Virus record (IMG/VR): IMGVR_UViG_3300028326_000183
Location: 1,771-65,770 of that record
DNA: 64,000 bases
Reading direction: 5' to 3' (one strand)
Origin: a virus
Each line of letters starts with the position of its first letter. Position 1 is the stretch's first letter. This document shows positions 27,652 to 64,000 of this stretch, in pieces. The notes beneath the pieces were generated by a model. The model was given only the letters and a program-made list of their open reading frames with translations, made no database searches and was not told the DNA's origin. The position numbers and the translations under genes were made by a program.

Positions 27652-29112
27652 TCAGTCAGTAAAAGGATTCCTGCCCTTCCGGTAATCATCGACTAGCATC
27701 TTTGCAAGGTCGATCTTTCCCCGGAGAGAACGGAGTATCTTGCGATCAACAGTACCGGCCGCAATAAGGTATATGTAATGACAGTTCTCTGTCTGGCTGA
27801 CCCTGTGTATGCGGGCTTTTGCCTGGTCGAAATTGCTCATAGAATAATCGAGCGAATAGAACACCATCGTGCTTGCCGCAGTCAGCGTAATTCCGAGGCC
27901 TGCTGCAGCGATCTGTCCAACGAACACGTAGCAGCCAGGATCCTTCTGGAAACGGCTTACCTCCCCGGCGCGGTCCTTTACGCCGCCGCGGATACAGGCG
28001 TAGCCTATCTTCTTTTTCTGCAGCATGGCTTCGATATCATTTAGCTCAGGAATAAAGCGCGCCATGACAACGACTTTCCTGCCCTCTTCCATAACTGAAT
28101 CGATGATGTCCGACAATGCGTCAAGCTTTGCGGTGCTTATCTGATGGGTATCCGATTCATCGTCCGTAAGATGCCCGCCTGTGACCTGCGACAGACGAAG
28201 AATCTTCGTAAGAACATTGACAGCCGTCACTTCACTGCCTTTGAGCTCTGTGAATGAATCCGCCTCAAGCTCTTCGTAGATCTTCATAGTTTTCGGTTCG
28301 AGTTGTACCGTGCGAATCTCCTCCGTTATCTCCGGAAGATCGAGGCACTCGGCCTTTGTCACGCGGTACGCGATGCTATGAAGCCTCCGAAGAAAATCGT
28401 TTAACATCCATTTTCTAAAACGCGGGATATGATTGCCGTAGCCGACCATATCAAAATATGTATTTCTAAATGTATAGAACGATGTGCCAAAGACGCTGCT
28501 GTTAAGAAAGCGATACTGACTGAAAACATCGAGCTCCTTGTTAGTGATAAGCGTCCCGGTAAGCAGCAGCTTATATGATGCATGGTCGCCCAGTTTGTGC
28601 ATGACCTTGCTCTGCTTGCTGCTATGCGATTTGATCTTGTGACCTTCGTCGGCGATGATAAGATCGGCGTCGAACTGCATGAGTTCCTTTTCCAGGATCC
28701 TTGCGGATTCGTAATTAACCACTACTATCTGCAAACCGTCGGAAGACACTTCCTTCAGCATCTTCCTTTTCTTGTCCGAAGTTCCCTGTAATATCGTCAT
28801 TGTATATGGGTACTCAGCGTACTGTTCATATTCTGACTCCCAAACACCCAGGATCGAAAGCGGCGCTACCACCAGCACCTTATTTACGAGGCCGAACTGG
28901 TAAAGGATCCCGGCAATGCCGATAGCCGCCAGGGTCTTGCCGCAGCCCATTTCCATAAGAAGCGCCACTCCCCTGCTCTTTGAATCCGACGGCAGAAGGC
29001 CAAACTTCCTGCAGGCGAAATCGAACGCCGCCTGCTGATGGCTGTACGGCCTTACCTTGACCGGCATCGGAAGAGATGGATTATCGATCTTCTTCAATAT
29101 ATCCACCTCCAT
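27652..29112 (-). CDS. SNF2-family (SF2) helicase
   Basis: LLMEMGCGKT, IIADEGHKIK, LTGT, GLGITLTAA, QAKARIHR. Confidence 0.94.
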   Translation of the reverse strand: MEVDILKKIDNPSLPMPVKVRPYSHQQAAFDFACRKFGLLPSDSKSRGVALLMEMGCGKTLAAIGIAGILYQFGLVNKVLVVAPLSILGVWESEYEQYAEYPYTMTILQGTSDKKRKMLKEVSSDGLQIVVVNYESARILEKELMQFDADLIIADEGHKIKSHSSKQSKVMHKLGDHASYKLLLTGTLITNKELDVFSQYRFLNSSVFGTSFYTFRNTYFDMVGYGNHIPRFRKWMLNDFLRRLHSIAYRVTKAECLDLPEITEEIRTVQLEPKTMKIYEELEADSFTELKGSEVTAVNVLTKILRLSQVTGGHLTDDESDTHQISTAKLDALSDIIDSVMEEGRKVVVMARFIPELNDIEAMLQKKKIGYACIRGGVKDRAGEVSRFQKDPGCYVFVGQIAAAGLGITLTAASTMVFYSLDYSMSNFDQAKARIHRVSQTENCHYIYLIAAGTVDRKILRSLRGKIDLAKMLVDDYRKGRNPFTD

Positions 29113-31729: not shown

Positions 31730-31758
31730 ATTATACGCGAACGGATGTTCTTTTTCAA
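31730..31758 (-). promoter_or_regulatory. SigA promoter with a LexA (SOS/Cheo) box in the spacer
   Basis: TTGAAA-17-TATAAT; GAAC-GGAT-GTTC at 31739-31750. Confidence 0.85.
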
Positions 31759-31891: not shown

Positions 31892-31922
31892 GCCCGGCAC
31901 ATCTACTAATAATGCGCCGGGC
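31892..31922 (-). terminator. Hairpin closing the 217-aa/482-aa operon
   Basis: GCCCGGC...GCCGGGC stem followed by TTATATT on the minus strand. Confidence 0.5.
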
Positions 31923-31977
31923 ATATGCAGCAATATATGCTGAGATTGATACAAAGGTCTGTTATCAAGTCATATTT

Positions 31978-33426
31978 CTAAATAGCGGGCAAGTATCCAA
32001 TTTTATTCACACTGATTATTCCCCTACGAAGTATAGTAATATTGATCGTTTCATATTCAATTTTATCAATTTCATATGATGTTTGGGTACATACAATCTC
32101 TGCTTGTTCGATGTCAGTTTTTGTAATTGGAATAGTATCTATCCCAATCTCATTGAGTAGTTCATCAGACAGTGTGTAATCTTGGTCTACTAATCCAAAG
32201 CAAGTAACTCCTGTATCACAGCATAATGAGATAAATTTATTCTTTCCAATTTTATATAAAACTGCAAATGAAGTCCCAATTAAGCTACCTAATAGATAAC
32301 CCAAAACAGGGAATTGCCATGTTAAAGTTTGAACAATGGTCCCTCCTAACTTGGTTCCTATCAAGTACCCTCCTGTTACAAAGGCATAATCTGCAAAAGC
32401 ATCTGCCATTTCGTGTTTCGTCATCTTACCCGCTGCAACAAGAATACTGTCTTTTATTGCCTGCAAAACTATAGTGACTACAGCGCCAAGCAGCGTAGGA
32501 TCTATTGTCTCAAGATGTTTACCCAACATCCCTCTTCTACACATTATGTATAATTCATATGAAACAAACCCTCGGAGAAATCCATCCACACTTGCACTTA
32601 TTGCTATTTTCCCTGTATGTTTAAGCTGATCAATATTTATTTCTTTATTCTTTATTAGATAATCTATAGATTTGTATATTTCAGGTGCAAGTTGCACGGC
32701 AATGGTAATAGTCGCAGCAGTATATCCGGCTTTTAAAGATTGCCGAAAAACATAGTCATCATGAATAACACTATCAAGTGTCACGCCTACTTCTTTTGCA
32801 TTGAATTCTCCTTTTTGACCAGCACGTGCCATATTCTCAAGCTGTTTTCTACTTGCAGGGGTTGATTCTATTCCTTCTTTGTTACTTAGGTGATCTGTAA
32901 GTTCACGATCGGTTTCTTTAAATGCATCGGAAACACTTTTTCGTGATAAAGATTCTTTTAGCATTCGTCTTTGCGCTTCAGCATGTGCATCTTCAAGTTG
33001 ATCGCAAGGAATAAGTCTTCCTTGTCCTTTATAAAGCGGCTCCCCCGTTTTCTTGTCTATAACTGCCTGGGCTATAGCACTTTTACTACCATCCGCATAA
33101 CTTTTTGCACTGTAATTTTTACCTGATAATAGGCTAATATCAACAGACCCTTTTTTATTACTATTAAGCACTTTGGCCCTATCTAATGAGCCCGAAGCAA
33201 TAGCATCTATGTTGAAAGTCCCAGCGTGAAAGACTTCCTGTACATATCCTTGAAAATGCGGTATATCTTGCCTTCGATATGGATGCGTATTAGTGCTATT
33301 TCCCATCATCTCAATGGCTTTTTCAATTTTACACGTATATGTATTTCCTTCATTTGCCGCATTATCTGCACACACAAGACTTGCAGCAAATTCCCAACCA
33401 CGCTGGATATTACTTTTGTCAGTCAT
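31978..33426 (-). CDS. Hypothetical protein: possible N-terminal nuclease-like domain plus C-terminal membrane helices
   Basis: 482 aa; QGYVQEVFHAGTFN...SVDI...YSAKSY; several Gly-rich hydrophobic helices in the C-terminal half. Confidence 0.8.
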   Translation of the reverse strand: MTDKSNIQRGWEFAASLVCADNAANEGNTYTCKIEKAIEMMGNSTNTHPYRRQDIPHFQGYVQEVFHAGTFNIDAIASGSLDRAKVLNSNKKGSVDISLLSGKNYSAKSYADGSKSAIAQAVIDKKTGEPLYKGQGRLIPCDQLEDAHAEAQRRMLKESLSRKSVSDAFKETDRELTDHLSNKEGIESTPASRKQLENMARAGQKGEFNAKEVGVTLDSVIHDDYVFRQSLKAGYTAATITIAVQLAPEIYKSIDYLIKNKEINIDQLKHTGKIAISASVDGFLRGFVSYELYIMCRRGMLGKHLETIDPTLLGAVVTIVLQAIKDSILVAAGKMTKHEMADAFADYAFVTGGYLIGTKLGGTIVQTLTWQFPVLGYLLGSLIGTSFAVLYKIGKNKFISLCCDTGVTCFGLVDQDYTLSDELLNEIGIDTIPITKTDIEQAEIVCTQTSYEIDKIEYETINITILRRGIISVNKIGYLPAI

Positions 33427-33436
33427 TTGCTTCTCC

Positions 33437-34090
33437 CTATATATGCATGAATGTTTCTAGGTCTTTCTCATATAAATTGATAACACCATAAAATAACATT
33501 TGCCTAGTAAGTATCGCCCTTTCATTAAGAAAATCATCTGCATTCTCAACAGTCTTTACAACTGCATTTTTCCCTGTATCAACAACCTTTTTTGCCCTTT
33601 TTATCACATTTGCAACAACTTTAGAATCTTCTAAGGCGTCGGACATTGCTTCATCATCTCTTGTTTTTTTTATTGTATTATTTCGAGGTTTTATTTCTTC
33701 TGGTATTTTTAGCTCTTCCATTTTTTCTAGAAATGCTTTATGTTTATCCTTATCATGAAGTTCTTTTACATCTGCATAGACAACACCTTGATTGCCAGCC
33801 CAACCATATCTAACACCAAATTCATCGAATTTAACATCAATAACAGGAATCAACTTATCCGTATCTTTTACATCACCTAAAAATAGGACTTTGCTTTGAA
33901 TATTTCCTGCTTTTTTATTTGCCATCCAAATGGGTTCTTCCCAAGAAACGATTTGGATTGTATCATCTTTAGTTCCAATTATTATATCCTCATTTGTATC
34001 GTCATTTGACTCTACCAGTTTTCTCAATTGATTGTTTAGCATTTCATCCTTATACACAACGATCAGTGTTTTGGCTGTATCAAATATCAT
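33437..34090 (-). CDS. Hypothetical protein
   Basis: 217 aa, 10-nt gap to the next gene; no family recognised. Confidence 0.8.
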   Translation of the reverse strand: MIFDTAKTLIVVYKDEMLNNQLRKLVESNDDTNEDIIIGTKDDTIQIVSWEEPIWMANKKAGNIQSKVLFLGDVKDTDKLIPVIDVKFDEFGVRYGWAGNQGVVYADVKELHDKDKHKAFLEKMEELKIPEEIKPRNNTIKKTRDDEAMSDALEDSKVVANVIKRAKKVVDTGKNAVVKTVENADDFLNERAILTRQMLFYGVINLYEKDLETFMHI

Positions 34091-34280
34091 AATACTCCCC
34101 TTTACTATCTAACTATTTAGCAAATTCTATAAAAACATACTATCTACCGTACTGTATACTATGAATCCGTTTTTTAACTGCTACAGTAATACCTTCTGTA
34201 GCAGTTTAAAAAGTATTATTACTTTAACAAATGTCATATATTAATTTAGTGTTTATAATCGATAGAACAACTTCTCTATA

Positions 34281-60959: not shown

Positions 60960-62420
60960 TCAAAACGGCAAAAGTCGGTCGGTCAACTCAATTATGTTTA
61001 TATTTGGGAAAGCGTAGTTGTTATAAATAGAGGCAATTATGATTTGGTGGTCTTTAAAGTCCTTGGCAAGAATATCCATCATTTCATGGACGTTCTCCAT
61101 ACTCACTTCACGCCCACTCGGTGAGTCCAAGATTATGGGCAAACAAACACCAGTGTGCCTTTGAATCAGCTTGACATATGAAATTTTGAAAGCGAACACG
61201 ACCTTGTGGAAGATCGCCCCTGACAATGACTTTAAGTCGTTAGTAAAAATGTAATCGTTCCTTGCGCTTACATATTTTTCGTCCAAACCGAGTCGCACGG
61301 CATATGACGAAATCAGTTGATGTAGCTCTGCTATAAGTGGATTATCCTGCTTAACGCTTTTTATCAGCTTTTCTTCTAATGCCCGTCTTTCTTTTTCCAT
61401 TTTATCTATTATCTTTTGGGTTGCCACAGCGTCTACATTTATTCTTGAGATTTCTGAATCAAACTGCTGAAGGCTTGTAGTCACATCGACCAGGGTTGCC
61501 TCTTTGTCTTGCTGCGCTTTTAGAACTGATATCTTTCTGTCAATTGCGACAAGCTGTTCAAAATAAATTTTTTGTTTTGCCACAAGCAAATCAGCGGTAT
61601 CTCCATAACCGACTAGGGTGTCCTTGTTGACTGGCACCTCGTCACCATTCGGGGCTTTCACTCTTAGCCTAAAAGAGGTAATGAACTTTTCAAAGTTCGT
61701 ATTCTTGCGGATTACGCTTTTTATGCGACTAAGTTCTTCCTCAATTGGTTTCCGTTCGCAATACAAGATGTCCAGTCCACTTTCAATATCATCTGCCGGA
61801 GAGTCAATGAAGGCAGTTTCGCCAAGCTGGTTAATTTCAGCCTTATATGTTGCCACATCAAGCATATGCTTGTATTTCTGAATCTCACGCTTAATGACAG
61901 CGAGTCGTTGTGCTAACTCGTCATTGGTGCGATTTGACAGACCACGAAGCAAGGATTCAATTGAAAAATGTATATTGCCAATCGCTTTGCCTCGGTTAAG
62001 TAAAGTCCATCCTTTTTCTTGGTCAACGTAAAAAGCGCCAAGGAGATTGTCGACCACTTCAAGGTTAGAAATGCCATATATTGAGGAGTGTAACTCATTT
62101 TGCTCAACCGGAAGCGAATATCCTTTCTCTATTCCATTGTGTAGCACTTCGATGTAGTCCCTATTTCTGGTTAGTACAAAGTTTTCATCACTAGCGCCAA
62201 TAACCGTCAGAACTGTTTCATAATCAGAAAAACGTATACCACGGGTATTTGGAATCTGGTAGCCCAAGGCGTACATCATCATTCGTAGCAAAGTTGTCTT
62301 ACCGACACTGTTTTTTGTGCTAAAAATAACATTAGCATTTTCCCCGAACGAGAAAACCTTCTGGTTATCGCTCAAAAGAGTTAACTGATTAGCGTTTACC
62401 TGCAACGAAACTATTCTCAT
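60960..62420 (-). CDS. lmuB: Short SMC-like ABC ATPase, Lamassu LmuB-like
   Basis: Walker A STKNSVGKTT, Q-loop FYVDQEKGW, coiled coil, LSGA signature, Walker B IILDSP. Confidence 0.78.
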   Translation of the reverse strand: MRIVSLQVNANQLTLLSDNQKVFSFGENANVIFSTKNSVGKTTLLRMMMYALGYQIPNTRGIRFSDYETVLTVIGASDENFVLTRNRDYIEVLHNGIEKGYSLPVEQNELHSSIYGISNLEVVDNLLGAFYVDQEKGWTLLNRGKAIGNIHFSIESLLRGLSNRTNDELAQRLAVIKREIQKYKHMLDVATYKAEINQLGETAFIDSPADDIESGLDILYCERKPIEEELSRIKSVIRKNTNFEKFITSFRLRVKAPNGDEVPVNKDTLVGYGDTADLLVAKQKIYFEQLVAIDRKISVLKAQQDKEATLVDVTTSLQQFDSEISRINVDAVATQKIIDKMEKERRALEEKLIKSVKQDNPLIAELHQLISSYAVRLGLDEKYVSARNDYIFTNDLKSLSGAIFHKVVFAFKISYVKLIQRHTGVCLPIILDSPSGREVSMENVHEMMDILAKDFKDHQIIIASIYNNYAFPNINIIELTDRLLPF

Positions 62421-63409
62421 AATTTCACCTTGCCTTTTATATCCGCTATGATCTTTCGGCTTCTTAGAACATTAGCTACAGTCACACGGATAACTATCTC
62501 TTCGGTGGTCGAATCTGCACTTTTTAAGTCAAAGCTATTCTTATAATTTTTCCAATTTTCCTCAATGAAATTTTTGGTTCGTTCTTTCGATTTCATCTCC
62601 GGGTGGAACTCGTTATAATCACTGAGAATGCAGGAAACAAATTCAAATCGCTCGCTGTTGTTGTTGATAACGCTTCTGTATTTTTGCAGAATCTCAGCAA
62701 CATCGCTGTCGTCGTAATCTTCAAGTTCAGCATCGTCTTCGCTTACTTCACAGAGTATTGCTATAACAGGCCAGACCATTCGCTTTTTTGTGATTGATGT
62801 TGTTAATTGTGATGCATTGACCGCAAAGGAATGTTGCCACAGTGCCAGCAAGTCACTTGTCGAAATTTTATGAACGCCAAGTTGATTAAGGAATTCTGTT
62901 GTTAAAGTTATCAGAACTTTATACCGCTCGTCATCGTTCTCACCGTGGAATTGCATCACGCAAACCGTCAGTAATGCCTTGTCAAAATCGTATCCTTTCA
63001 AGGAGCAAATATCGTTAATTGCCTCCTGACAAGCGGTAGGCAGTTCCGAAAAAGGTACAATGTTAAGCGGGCTGCTGAACTTAAACATAGTCGTCATGTC
63101 ATTAAACGGGTTTGGGGAATTCGTAATAAAAACAAGTTGTTCAACGTCAGATATCTTTGCGGCATTGTTAAGTGTTCGTAGCCCAGCTTCCAGTTTTTCT
63201 TTAACGTGACTGTAGTCGTCAGGCTTCATAACTGCTTTTGCTTGTGACATCAATGTTTTTCCGTCAGCGAAAGTAATCTCGACATCTTCTGATTGCCCCT
63301 CAACTTTGACCTTGGAGGCTTTCTCAATGTTTTTAAGCATCAGCATAATTGCCGCATTACTTTGAAAATCCCATCCAAAGGCGGATGCCGATGCGTTTGA
63401 AGACTTCAT
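62417..63409 (-). CDS. lmuA: Lamassu LmuA-like effector with an N-terminal Cap4/Mrr-type nuclease
   Basis: ASASAFGWDFQ, EGQSEDV, QAK PD-(D/E)xK-type motifs; ATGA overlap with the ATPase gene. Confidence 0.72.
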   Translation of the reverse strand: MKSSNASASAFGWDFQSNAAIMLMLKNIEKASKVKVEGQSEDVEITFADGKTLMSQAKAVMKPDDYSHVKEKLEAGLRTLNNAAKISDVEQLVFITNSPNPFNDMTTMFKFSSPLNIVPFSELPTACQEAINDICSLKGYDFDKALLTVCVMQFHGENDDERYKVLITLTTEFLNQLGVHKISTSDLLALWQHSFAVNASQLTTSITKKRMVWPVIAILCEVSEDDAELEDYDDSDVAEILQKYRSVINNNSERFEFVSCILSDYNEFHPEMKSKERTKNFIEENWKNYKNSFDLKSADSTTEEIVIRVTVANVLRSRKIIADIKGKVKL

Positions 63410-63460: not shown

Positions 63461-64000
63461 TTACTCCACACCCAAAGCCTTAAACACTGCTTCCTGCGGT
63501 GTTGAGTAAAATATTAAACTGAATGCGCCGATAAGGTCTGACGGAACCGTTCCAAGTTCGGCGGCTGATGTTATTGGTATTAATACTTTCTTCGCTCCGG
63601 CATCGAGGCAGACTTGCAGGACGCTCGCCAGTTCTTCTACCTTGAGGATTGTGCCACTGATGCTGATTTCACCGAGGACTGCAAGGCTTGATAGAGTAGG
63701 TTTGCCAAGGGCGCAGGATGCAAGTGCTATCACTGTCGGCAGGGTCAGAAACTTCGTCATCCCGATGCCGTTAAGGTCTTGGTAGTTGATAATGTAATCC
63801 TTCGTGGTCGTGCTGAGTTGACCGCTTATCTGGTTGCCGCTTGCTTTCAGGTAGTTGAACGCGGTGTTTGTGGCTTCCTTTGCGTCACGGTCGGAGCCAA
63901 GCCCAGTGCGTTCGAACTTGCCGTTGCCGGGAAGCATCTGCGTTTCAAGGCGGTATACACCTATCATACCGCTCTTGCCCTGCGAGATTGTGTAGACATT
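63461..64000 (-). CDS. brxL: BREX Lon-like protease BrxL, C-terminal part (runs off the right edge)
   Basis: Frame open to the edge: NVYTISQGKSGMIGVYRLETQMLPGNGKFERTGLG...LAVLGEISISG...DAGAKKVLIP...AVFKALGVE*. Confidence 0.88.
   Translation of the reverse strand, partial: NVYTISQGKSGMIGVYRLETQMLPGNGKFERTGLGSDRDAKEATNTAFNYLKASGNQISGQLSTTTKDYIINYQDLNGIGMTKFLTLPTVIALASCALGKPTLSSLAVLGEISISGTILKVEELASVLQVCLDAGAKKVLIPITSAAELGTVPSDLIGAFSLIFYSTPQEAVFKALGVE

Follow-up and report, generated by a model that had tools for sequence, protein, structure and literature searches.

A mobile gene pair encoding a predicted membrane protein of the YeeR superfamily, and its possible role in anti-phage defence

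The window analysed here, a stretch of 64,000 nucleotides (positions 1,771 to 65,770 of the IMG/VR virus record IMGVR_UViG_3300028326_000183), contains two adjacent open reading frames (ORFs) on its minus strand, here called gene A (33437..34090, 217 amino acids) and gene B (31978..33426, 482 amino acids), which make up a mobile unit, complete in itself, that spreads horizontally and has stayed together across Bacillota, Atopobiaceae, Bifidobacteriaceae and Streptococcus. Nothing catalogued matches the pair, and its sole relative is an uncharacterised family: by profile comparison, B is a remote, N-terminally shortened member of the YeeR superfamily, with a C-terminal domain of its own and with A as its obligate partner. 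Tentatively, and with a likelihood somewhat short of even, the pair is read as a putative anti-phage system that works by abortive infection or exclusion and whose effector acts on the membrane. What points to this reading is the conserved synteny of the two genes, their mobility, the defence genes among their neighbours, the hydrophobic hairpin and glycine zipper of B, its homology to YeeR and its invariant polar residues.

An earlier note, made from the letters of the window and a list of their ORFs, had described the two genes as a standalone operon that could be assigned to no named system, and both parts of this description have held up. In 91 of 96 loci the gene immediately upstream of B, on the same strand, is a homologue of A, with gaps ranging from -61 to +16 nucleotides, and the arrangement persists where the identity of B to the query has dropped to 32-34%. 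The surroundings contain no conserved third gene, the 902 flanking ORFs falling into 674 clusters in 70 independent contexts. Five loci lack a full pair: in some of them B is truncated or frameshifted, one is cut off by the end of its contig, and in L043 A was not detected. Searches of Pfam, PADLOC, PHROGs and NCBIfam gave no significant match for either protein, and profile searches of the Protein Data Bank (PDB) sequences returned nothing for A or B. Word-indexed searches returned 584 relatives for B and 920 for A, none of them with a name, and an exhaustive profile search with B extended to 987 clusters at 50% identity. Loci were fetched from species-representative genomes (80 loci, from Atopobiaceae, Lachnospiraceae, Oscillospiraceae, Bifidobacteriaceae, Streptococcus pneumoniae, mitis and suis, and others) and from IMG/VR (10 loci).

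In three loci (L047, L070 and L085) frameshifts or stop codons split B into two or three ORFs, while A is intact in L047 and L070. Broken copies are common for costly accessory genes, and for this reason the broken B genes are counted in favour of the anti-phage reading.

Three parts can be distinguished in B, all encoded on the minus strand: an N-terminal alpha/beta domain (residues 1-222; 32761..33426), which corresponds to the YeeR_C region of YeeR, an amphipathic helical hairpin with a glycine-zipper region (residues 223-396; 32239..32760), and an acidic C-terminal domain with a net charge of -9 (residues 397-482; 31981..32238). In the AlphaFold2 model, residues 30-230 have a predicted local distance difference test score (pLDDT) above 90, residues 223-297 form a long helical hairpin, and residues 310-394 form three helices with a pLDDT of about 70; the last 85 residues are unmodelled, the C-terminal domain having a pLDDT below 50. 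Hydropathy reaches membrane grade in the segments 310-335 and 371-393, which bears out the Gly-rich, hydrophobic and helical character that had been ascribed to the C-terminal half of the protein. Since clusters of Lys and Arg flank both hydrophobic helices, standing before the first and after the second, the sequence suggests an N-in/C-in hairpin, a topology that would leave both large domains in the cytoplasm. Some of the structural neighbours of B in the AlphaFold Database (AFDB) bear the name 'glycine zipper'.

Six residues (G60, E64, K108, Y132, G286 and G380) do not vary among 96 representatives with 27-48% identity, in which the conservation of N72, D96, Q120 and the C-terminal motif is 90% or more; among 79 sequences, T70, Q135, R137 and R162 reach at least 95%. 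In the N-terminal domain E64, N72, D96, K108, Q120, Y132, R137 and R162 make up a conserved polar constellation. The C-terminal motif is the near-invariant S-F-C-x-D-x-G-x-T-x-F-G-L-V-x-Q-x-Y, to which R468-G469 can be added.

The homology of B to YeeR is apparent at the level of family profiles. Specifically, an hhalign comparison of the B family profile with the YeeR profile gave a probability of 98.2% and an E-value of 4.2e-14 over 297 columns, at an identity of about 18%. The alignment spans D96 and K108, passes through the helical part and runs into the glycine zipper, covering residues ~434-754 of the ~840 amino acids of YeeR; against the single sequence of Escherichia coli K-12 YeeR, B aligns weakly, over the conserved core. 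Common to both proteins are the motifs AAE/QE, N, GADR/SVDI (with D96), QTKY/SAKSY (with K108), Y132 and VPKDQY/LIPxDQL, as well as a hydrophobic glycine-zipper segment that comes at the corresponding place in the order, and the genes for both occur in integrative islands, beside defence genes. They differ, however, in three respects. The N-terminal region of YeeR, with its multiple transmembrane segments, and its Cys-rich segment have no counterpart in B, which starts about 60 residues before E64 and has no N-terminal hydrophobic segment; the conserved SFCxDxGxTxFGLV domain at the C terminus belongs to B and sets it apart; and B is paired with A, whereas YeeR loci are without A.

As far as the tools show, this relationship is not annotated. 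In the precomputed annotation the domain 'YeeR_C' (PF27347) is present on 120 of 120 YeeR matches and on none of 120 B matches. In Atlas clusters related to B, YeeR_C is carried by 12-26% of the members, and the Atlas model from the cluster at 26% superposes on B with TM-scores of 0.49/0.58 over 281 residues. E. coli K-12 YeeR itself (b2001) is encoded in the CP4-44 cryptic prophage and its annotation stops at inner membrane protein. The K-12 gene (L103:5780-7309) encodes a truncated form of 510 amino acids; most homologues have ~820-850 amino acids and extend into the helical/glycine-zipper region, so that what is called YeeR_C lies in the middle of full-length YeeR.

In Enterobacteriaceae, full-length YeeR is part of a CP4-type island and has dndBCDE as its neighbour. 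Directly upstream of an enterobacterial YeeR there is an unannotated gene of 481 amino acids (L114:5519-6964) with a helical/glycine-zipper module of the B type (hmmsearch E ~7e-9, 4 sequences). Because this neighbour has the membrane module of B, the enterobacterial YeeR island contains two paralogous membrane-module proteins. A search for an A-like gene beside enterobacterial YeeR found none, and the membrane module is all that the 481-residue neighbour has in common with B.

The N-terminal domain raises the question of a nuclease. The string QE..HA.TFN...SVDI...YSAKSY, found at residues 63-110 of B, had been taken as reminiscent of a PD-(D/E)xK-type core, and this comparison stands in part. 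E64, D96 and K108 are conserved, and the modelled succession of a helix (55-78), three strands (84-86, 97-99 and 104-106), a helix (113-120), a strand (136-138) and more helices fits the alpha-beta-beta-beta-alpha-beta order of that core, but a convincing structural match to its solved members was not obtained. The canonical catalytic D...(D/E)xK is also missing from B, although D96 and K108 are kept, because position 106, two before K108, is S in 59, G in 19 and Q in one of 79 sequences and is never acidic. In some PD-(D/E)xK enzymes (Cfr10I-type) one residue of the (D/E)xK motif is non-acidic and a Glu is supplied from a helix, and only a variant active site that uses E64 could suit a PD-(D/E)xK reading of B. 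None of the nuclease families and structures compared with B matches convincingly, and when Pfam matches were tallied for 96 divergent members of the family and for 10 longer variants, nothing but scattered noise appeared. Foldseek, to which the earlier note had looked for an assignment, found no match to the B model at E <= 0.001 in PDB, BFVD or the Swiss-Prot part of AFDB. A nuclease function of B is regarded as doubtful.

The helical half had also been likened to the membrane-inserting bundles of pore-formers. The match of B to helical pore-forming bundles (the colicin pore domain and Bcl-2/Bak) is at the noise level for helical proteins, and its glycine-zipper pattern with flanking Lys/Arg clusters suits a constitutive membrane hairpin equally well as a pore-forming bundle. 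Two-gene defence systems with a membrane-spanning component include Kiwa (KwaAB), type II Thoeris with a transmembrane effector, and Zorya. Like these, A-B is a small operon of a soluble and a membrane protein, found in defence islands and mobile elements; unlike these, it has domains that are unrelated to theirs and shows no sequence or profile similarity to their PADLOC models.

The partner protein A is soluble and has no hydrophobic segment. Its acidic N-terminal alpha/beta domain (residues about 1-130) has a strand-helix pattern and is followed by a Lys/Glu-rich linker of variable length and low predicted confidence (about 131-185) and by a conserved C-terminal helix (about 186-217). Among 82 sequences, L9, G39, W50, E52, L69, G72, G92, G96, W97, G99 and F120, and within the C-terminal helix Q197, Y207, L211 and F214, are at least 95% conserved, E52 being the sole charged residue at this level. 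The AlphaFold2 model of A has a pLDDT of 49 and is unusable. An Atlas feature search, with the whole protein and with the N-terminal domain alone, yielded no usable match, and in a low-confidence Atlas model the resemblance to CheY-like receivers is weak (TM-score <= 0.46). A TIR-like domain, an idea that came from a strand followed by W-x-E, was dropped, as it is supported by no tool and by no Pfam or NCBIfam match. In three independent assemblies (L005:7351-7990, L006 and L015) A is split into an ORF of 202 amino acids that holds the N-terminal domain and an overlapping ORF of 68 amino acids, in another frame, that holds the C-terminal helix, the frameshift lying inside the variable linker; B comes next in these loci and is followed by a further, unrelated gene of 202 amino acids.

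The settings in which the pair is found are diverse. In the 65-kb genome of phage NatCom_9287, A and B follow a LlaJI-type restriction enzyme and two methyltransferases; in L104-108 they have a prophage integrase on one side and the host flank on the other, and an ApeA HEPN defence gene accompanies them; and in L100/101 they are the cargo of a small Xis/Int element that also contains HicAB, a terminase fragment and a Macro-domain gene. The Macro-domain gene is located two genes downstream of the pair (L100:12204-12746). Among the 120 nearest neighbours are GmrSD/HEC-05, type II and type III restriction enzymes, type I and type II methyltransferases, Drt4, DolB, PDC-S11, PDC-M55C, mad2/3 and TnpV; ADP-ribosylglycohydrolase accounts for four of the 120. 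In some loci a small gene stands ahead of A: a gene of the HTH_26 helix-turn-helix (HTH) family precedes it in L002-L004, and in Bifidobacterium a short ORF, whose start varies so that it has 70-116 amino acids, shares 8 nucleotides with the beginning of A (L109-L113:8658-9008). These small genes ahead of A suggest an optional upstream regulator.

If the pair does act against phages, B would sit in the membrane as an N-in/C-in hairpin, and A would dock on it via its C-terminal helix, a contact suggested by synteny alone. A would then either hold B inactive or pass a phage cue to it. Upon infection, B might oligomerise via its glycine zippers and so permeabilise the membrane; alternatively or additionally, its E/D/K pocket might bind or cut nucleic acid at the membrane.

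A number of results weigh against a defence function. With PADLOC-DB 2.0, neither A nor B hit any family at E <= 1. The earlier note had expected novelty to show itself as a negative PADLOC result together with an enrichment of the homologous pairs in defence islands; the former was obtained, but the latter was not, as the distance control does not discriminate: 106 genes lying 7-10 kb off in the same loci gave 172 PADLOC families, compared with 259 in the 120 nearest genes, and these distant genes too include AbiEi, PDC-S01 and mad3. The regions around the pair are defence-rich and mobile, in a descriptive sense that implies no measured enrichment, given that there is no gradient with distance and no genome-wide background. 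The pair is also rare in sequenced phages, with one full match in 50,697 records. Literature searches found no functional data on the pair, on YeeR or on glycine-zipper defence systems, and the model of A lends no support to its fold or to a contact with B. Finally, not all settings are of the kind expected for defence genes: in Bifidobacterium and in a metagenome-assembled genome of Christensenellales the pair forms a small islet among metabolic genes, with an HTH gene or a short ORF ahead of A, and in six Streptococcus species it occupies one fixed, non-mobile and housekeeping-like site of the chromosome, in the order Tex, SprT, PspC-domain gene, A, B and ABC/FtsX transporter.

These last settings also speak for an alternative explanation, in which the pair is an envelope or membrane-physiology module (for stress sensing or repair, or for cell-wall-linked signalling) without a dedicated anti-phage role, that is, an ordinary function sometimes carried on mobile elements. 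At the streptococcal site the pair stands right after the PspC-domain gene and before the transporter, one Atlas cluster has YeeR_C fused to choline-binding cell-wall repeats, and the annotation of YeeR goes no further than the inner membrane. Against this, the genomic position of the pair is highly variable, with its 70 contexts, and copies are known from a phage, from the ends of prophages and from a small integrative element, with recurrent defence genes nearby and, in the window, with a low, foreign-looking GC content. On balance, this explanation is considered unlikely.

A toxin-antitoxin-like addiction module that stabilises its carrier elements is less probable again. B would here be a membrane toxin and A a labile antitoxin with a protease-sensitive linker, and the tight spacing, with the putative antitoxin gene before the toxin gene, would be in keeping with this, as would the length-variable, low-confidence linker of A, the occasional breakage of B, the vicinity of other toxin-antitoxin genes (HicAB and AbiEi) and the small HTH gene or short ORF upstream in some loci. 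However, searches of A with Pfam, PHROGs and NCBIfam brought up no HTH, ribbon-helix-helix or antitoxin family, and neither a DNA-binding domain nor a known antitoxin domain can be recognised in it; the size of both proteins is large for a type II pair; and an intact B without A is seen in at most one locus (L043). Many toxin-antitoxin pairs are defence systems too, and this explanation therefore overlaps with the anti-phage reading.

That the pair serves the cycle of the element itself, through superinfection exclusion at the membrane, lysis timing or counter-defence, is improbable: although the window comes from an IMG/VR virus record that CheckV rates as 100% complete, the pair adjoins a phage early operon there and is present in the 65-kb phage genome and in 10 IMG/VR contigs, and ADP-ribosylglycohydrolase (4 loci) and Macro-domain genes nearby have possible counter-defence functions, most copies are chromosomal with no phage genes nearby, the GC content of the pair is unlike that of the prophage backbone, and the copies in L104-108 lie outside the integrase, on the host side.

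The putative anti-phage module may have implications beyond the window. With about 1,000 clusters at 50% identity, the pair is widespread among Gram-positive bacteria of the human gut, the mouth and the rumen, including Streptococcus pneumoniae and S. mitis, and is carried by some 130 species genomes, yet it has no annotation; its near-absolute coupling, combined with its mobility, marks A-B as a functional unit. The link between B and YeeR unites two large sets of 'hypothetical proteins' and provides conserved residues for both. In a more far-reaching proposal, which is rather unlikely to be correct as a whole, A-B would be the first functionally interpretable branch of the YeeR superfamily: a membrane-anchored anti-phage system whose effector has, on the inner side of the membrane, a divergent E/D/K domain of a nuclease-like or nucleotide-binding kind and hits incoming phage DNA or collapses the membrane. 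If true, this would tell what the E. coli y-ome gene yeeR does, and likewise hundreds of genes from gut, mouth and rumen bacteria that have no annotation. A defence system of this kind would represent a new membrane-anchored type of effector, with a bearing on phage therapy and gut phage ecology; if the pair is no defence system, it is still an unexplained conserved membrane module.

At the level of the locus, the earlier description of a 217-residue gene followed 10 nucleotides later by a co-oriented 482-residue gene, with a hairpin on each side, was accurate. Each gene has a Shine-Dalgarno sequence on the minus strand 5 nucleotides ahead of its ATG, GGGGAG for A (34095..34100) and GGGAGA for B (33432..33437), the latter overlapping the last base of the stop codon of A. 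Both flanking hairpins, likewise on the minus strand, are far more stable than shuffled sequence. The downstream hairpin, 3' of B (31892..31922; -25.8 kcal/mol, z -4.4), is terminator-like, with a stem of 12 base pairs, 8 of them GC. The upstream hairpin, between a PC4-like gene and A (34177..34207; -17.5 kcal/mol, z -5.8), is followed on the coding strand by UUAAAAAA in place of a U-tract and is therefore no canonical terminator on the minus strand. As no candidate passed a consensus promoter scan between this hairpin and A, transcription of the pair may depend on read-through or on a weak promoter.

The pair is situated where phage genes give way to an accessory island of low GC content, as had been proposed, and its AT-richness does resemble that of the adjacent defence genes: the GC content is 0.35-0.36 for A-B, 0.31-0.36 for the defence genes to the right and 0.42-0.53 for the prophage to the left. 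The module on the left is one of phage early/replication genes; it includes an SNF2 helicase (27652-29112), and a strong promoter is located at 31758. To the right, the PC4-like gene is followed by a helicase-restriction endonuclease of 1658 amino acids (PADLOC PDC-S37/Hhe-like; Pfam MTES_1575), then by McrBC and by a type I restriction-modification system with two hsdS genes and a tyrosine recombinase; tRNA-Leu, a Y-family polymerase, a BspA-type leucine-rich repeat protein and a Lon_C-like gene are rightmost. The virus record has 66.6 kb, nearly all of it inside the window, and about half of this "complete" record (31.9-52 kb) is low-GC defence cargo, comprising the helicase-restriction endonuclease, McrBC and the type I restriction-modification shufflon. 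No phage integrase was found within the window besides the recombinase of the shufflon. Ahead of the Lon_C-like gene (63461-63967, 168 amino acids) stand two genes in the same orientation, of 330 and 486 amino acids (60960-63409), that have no Pfam match, and these three genes may form another uncharacterised module.

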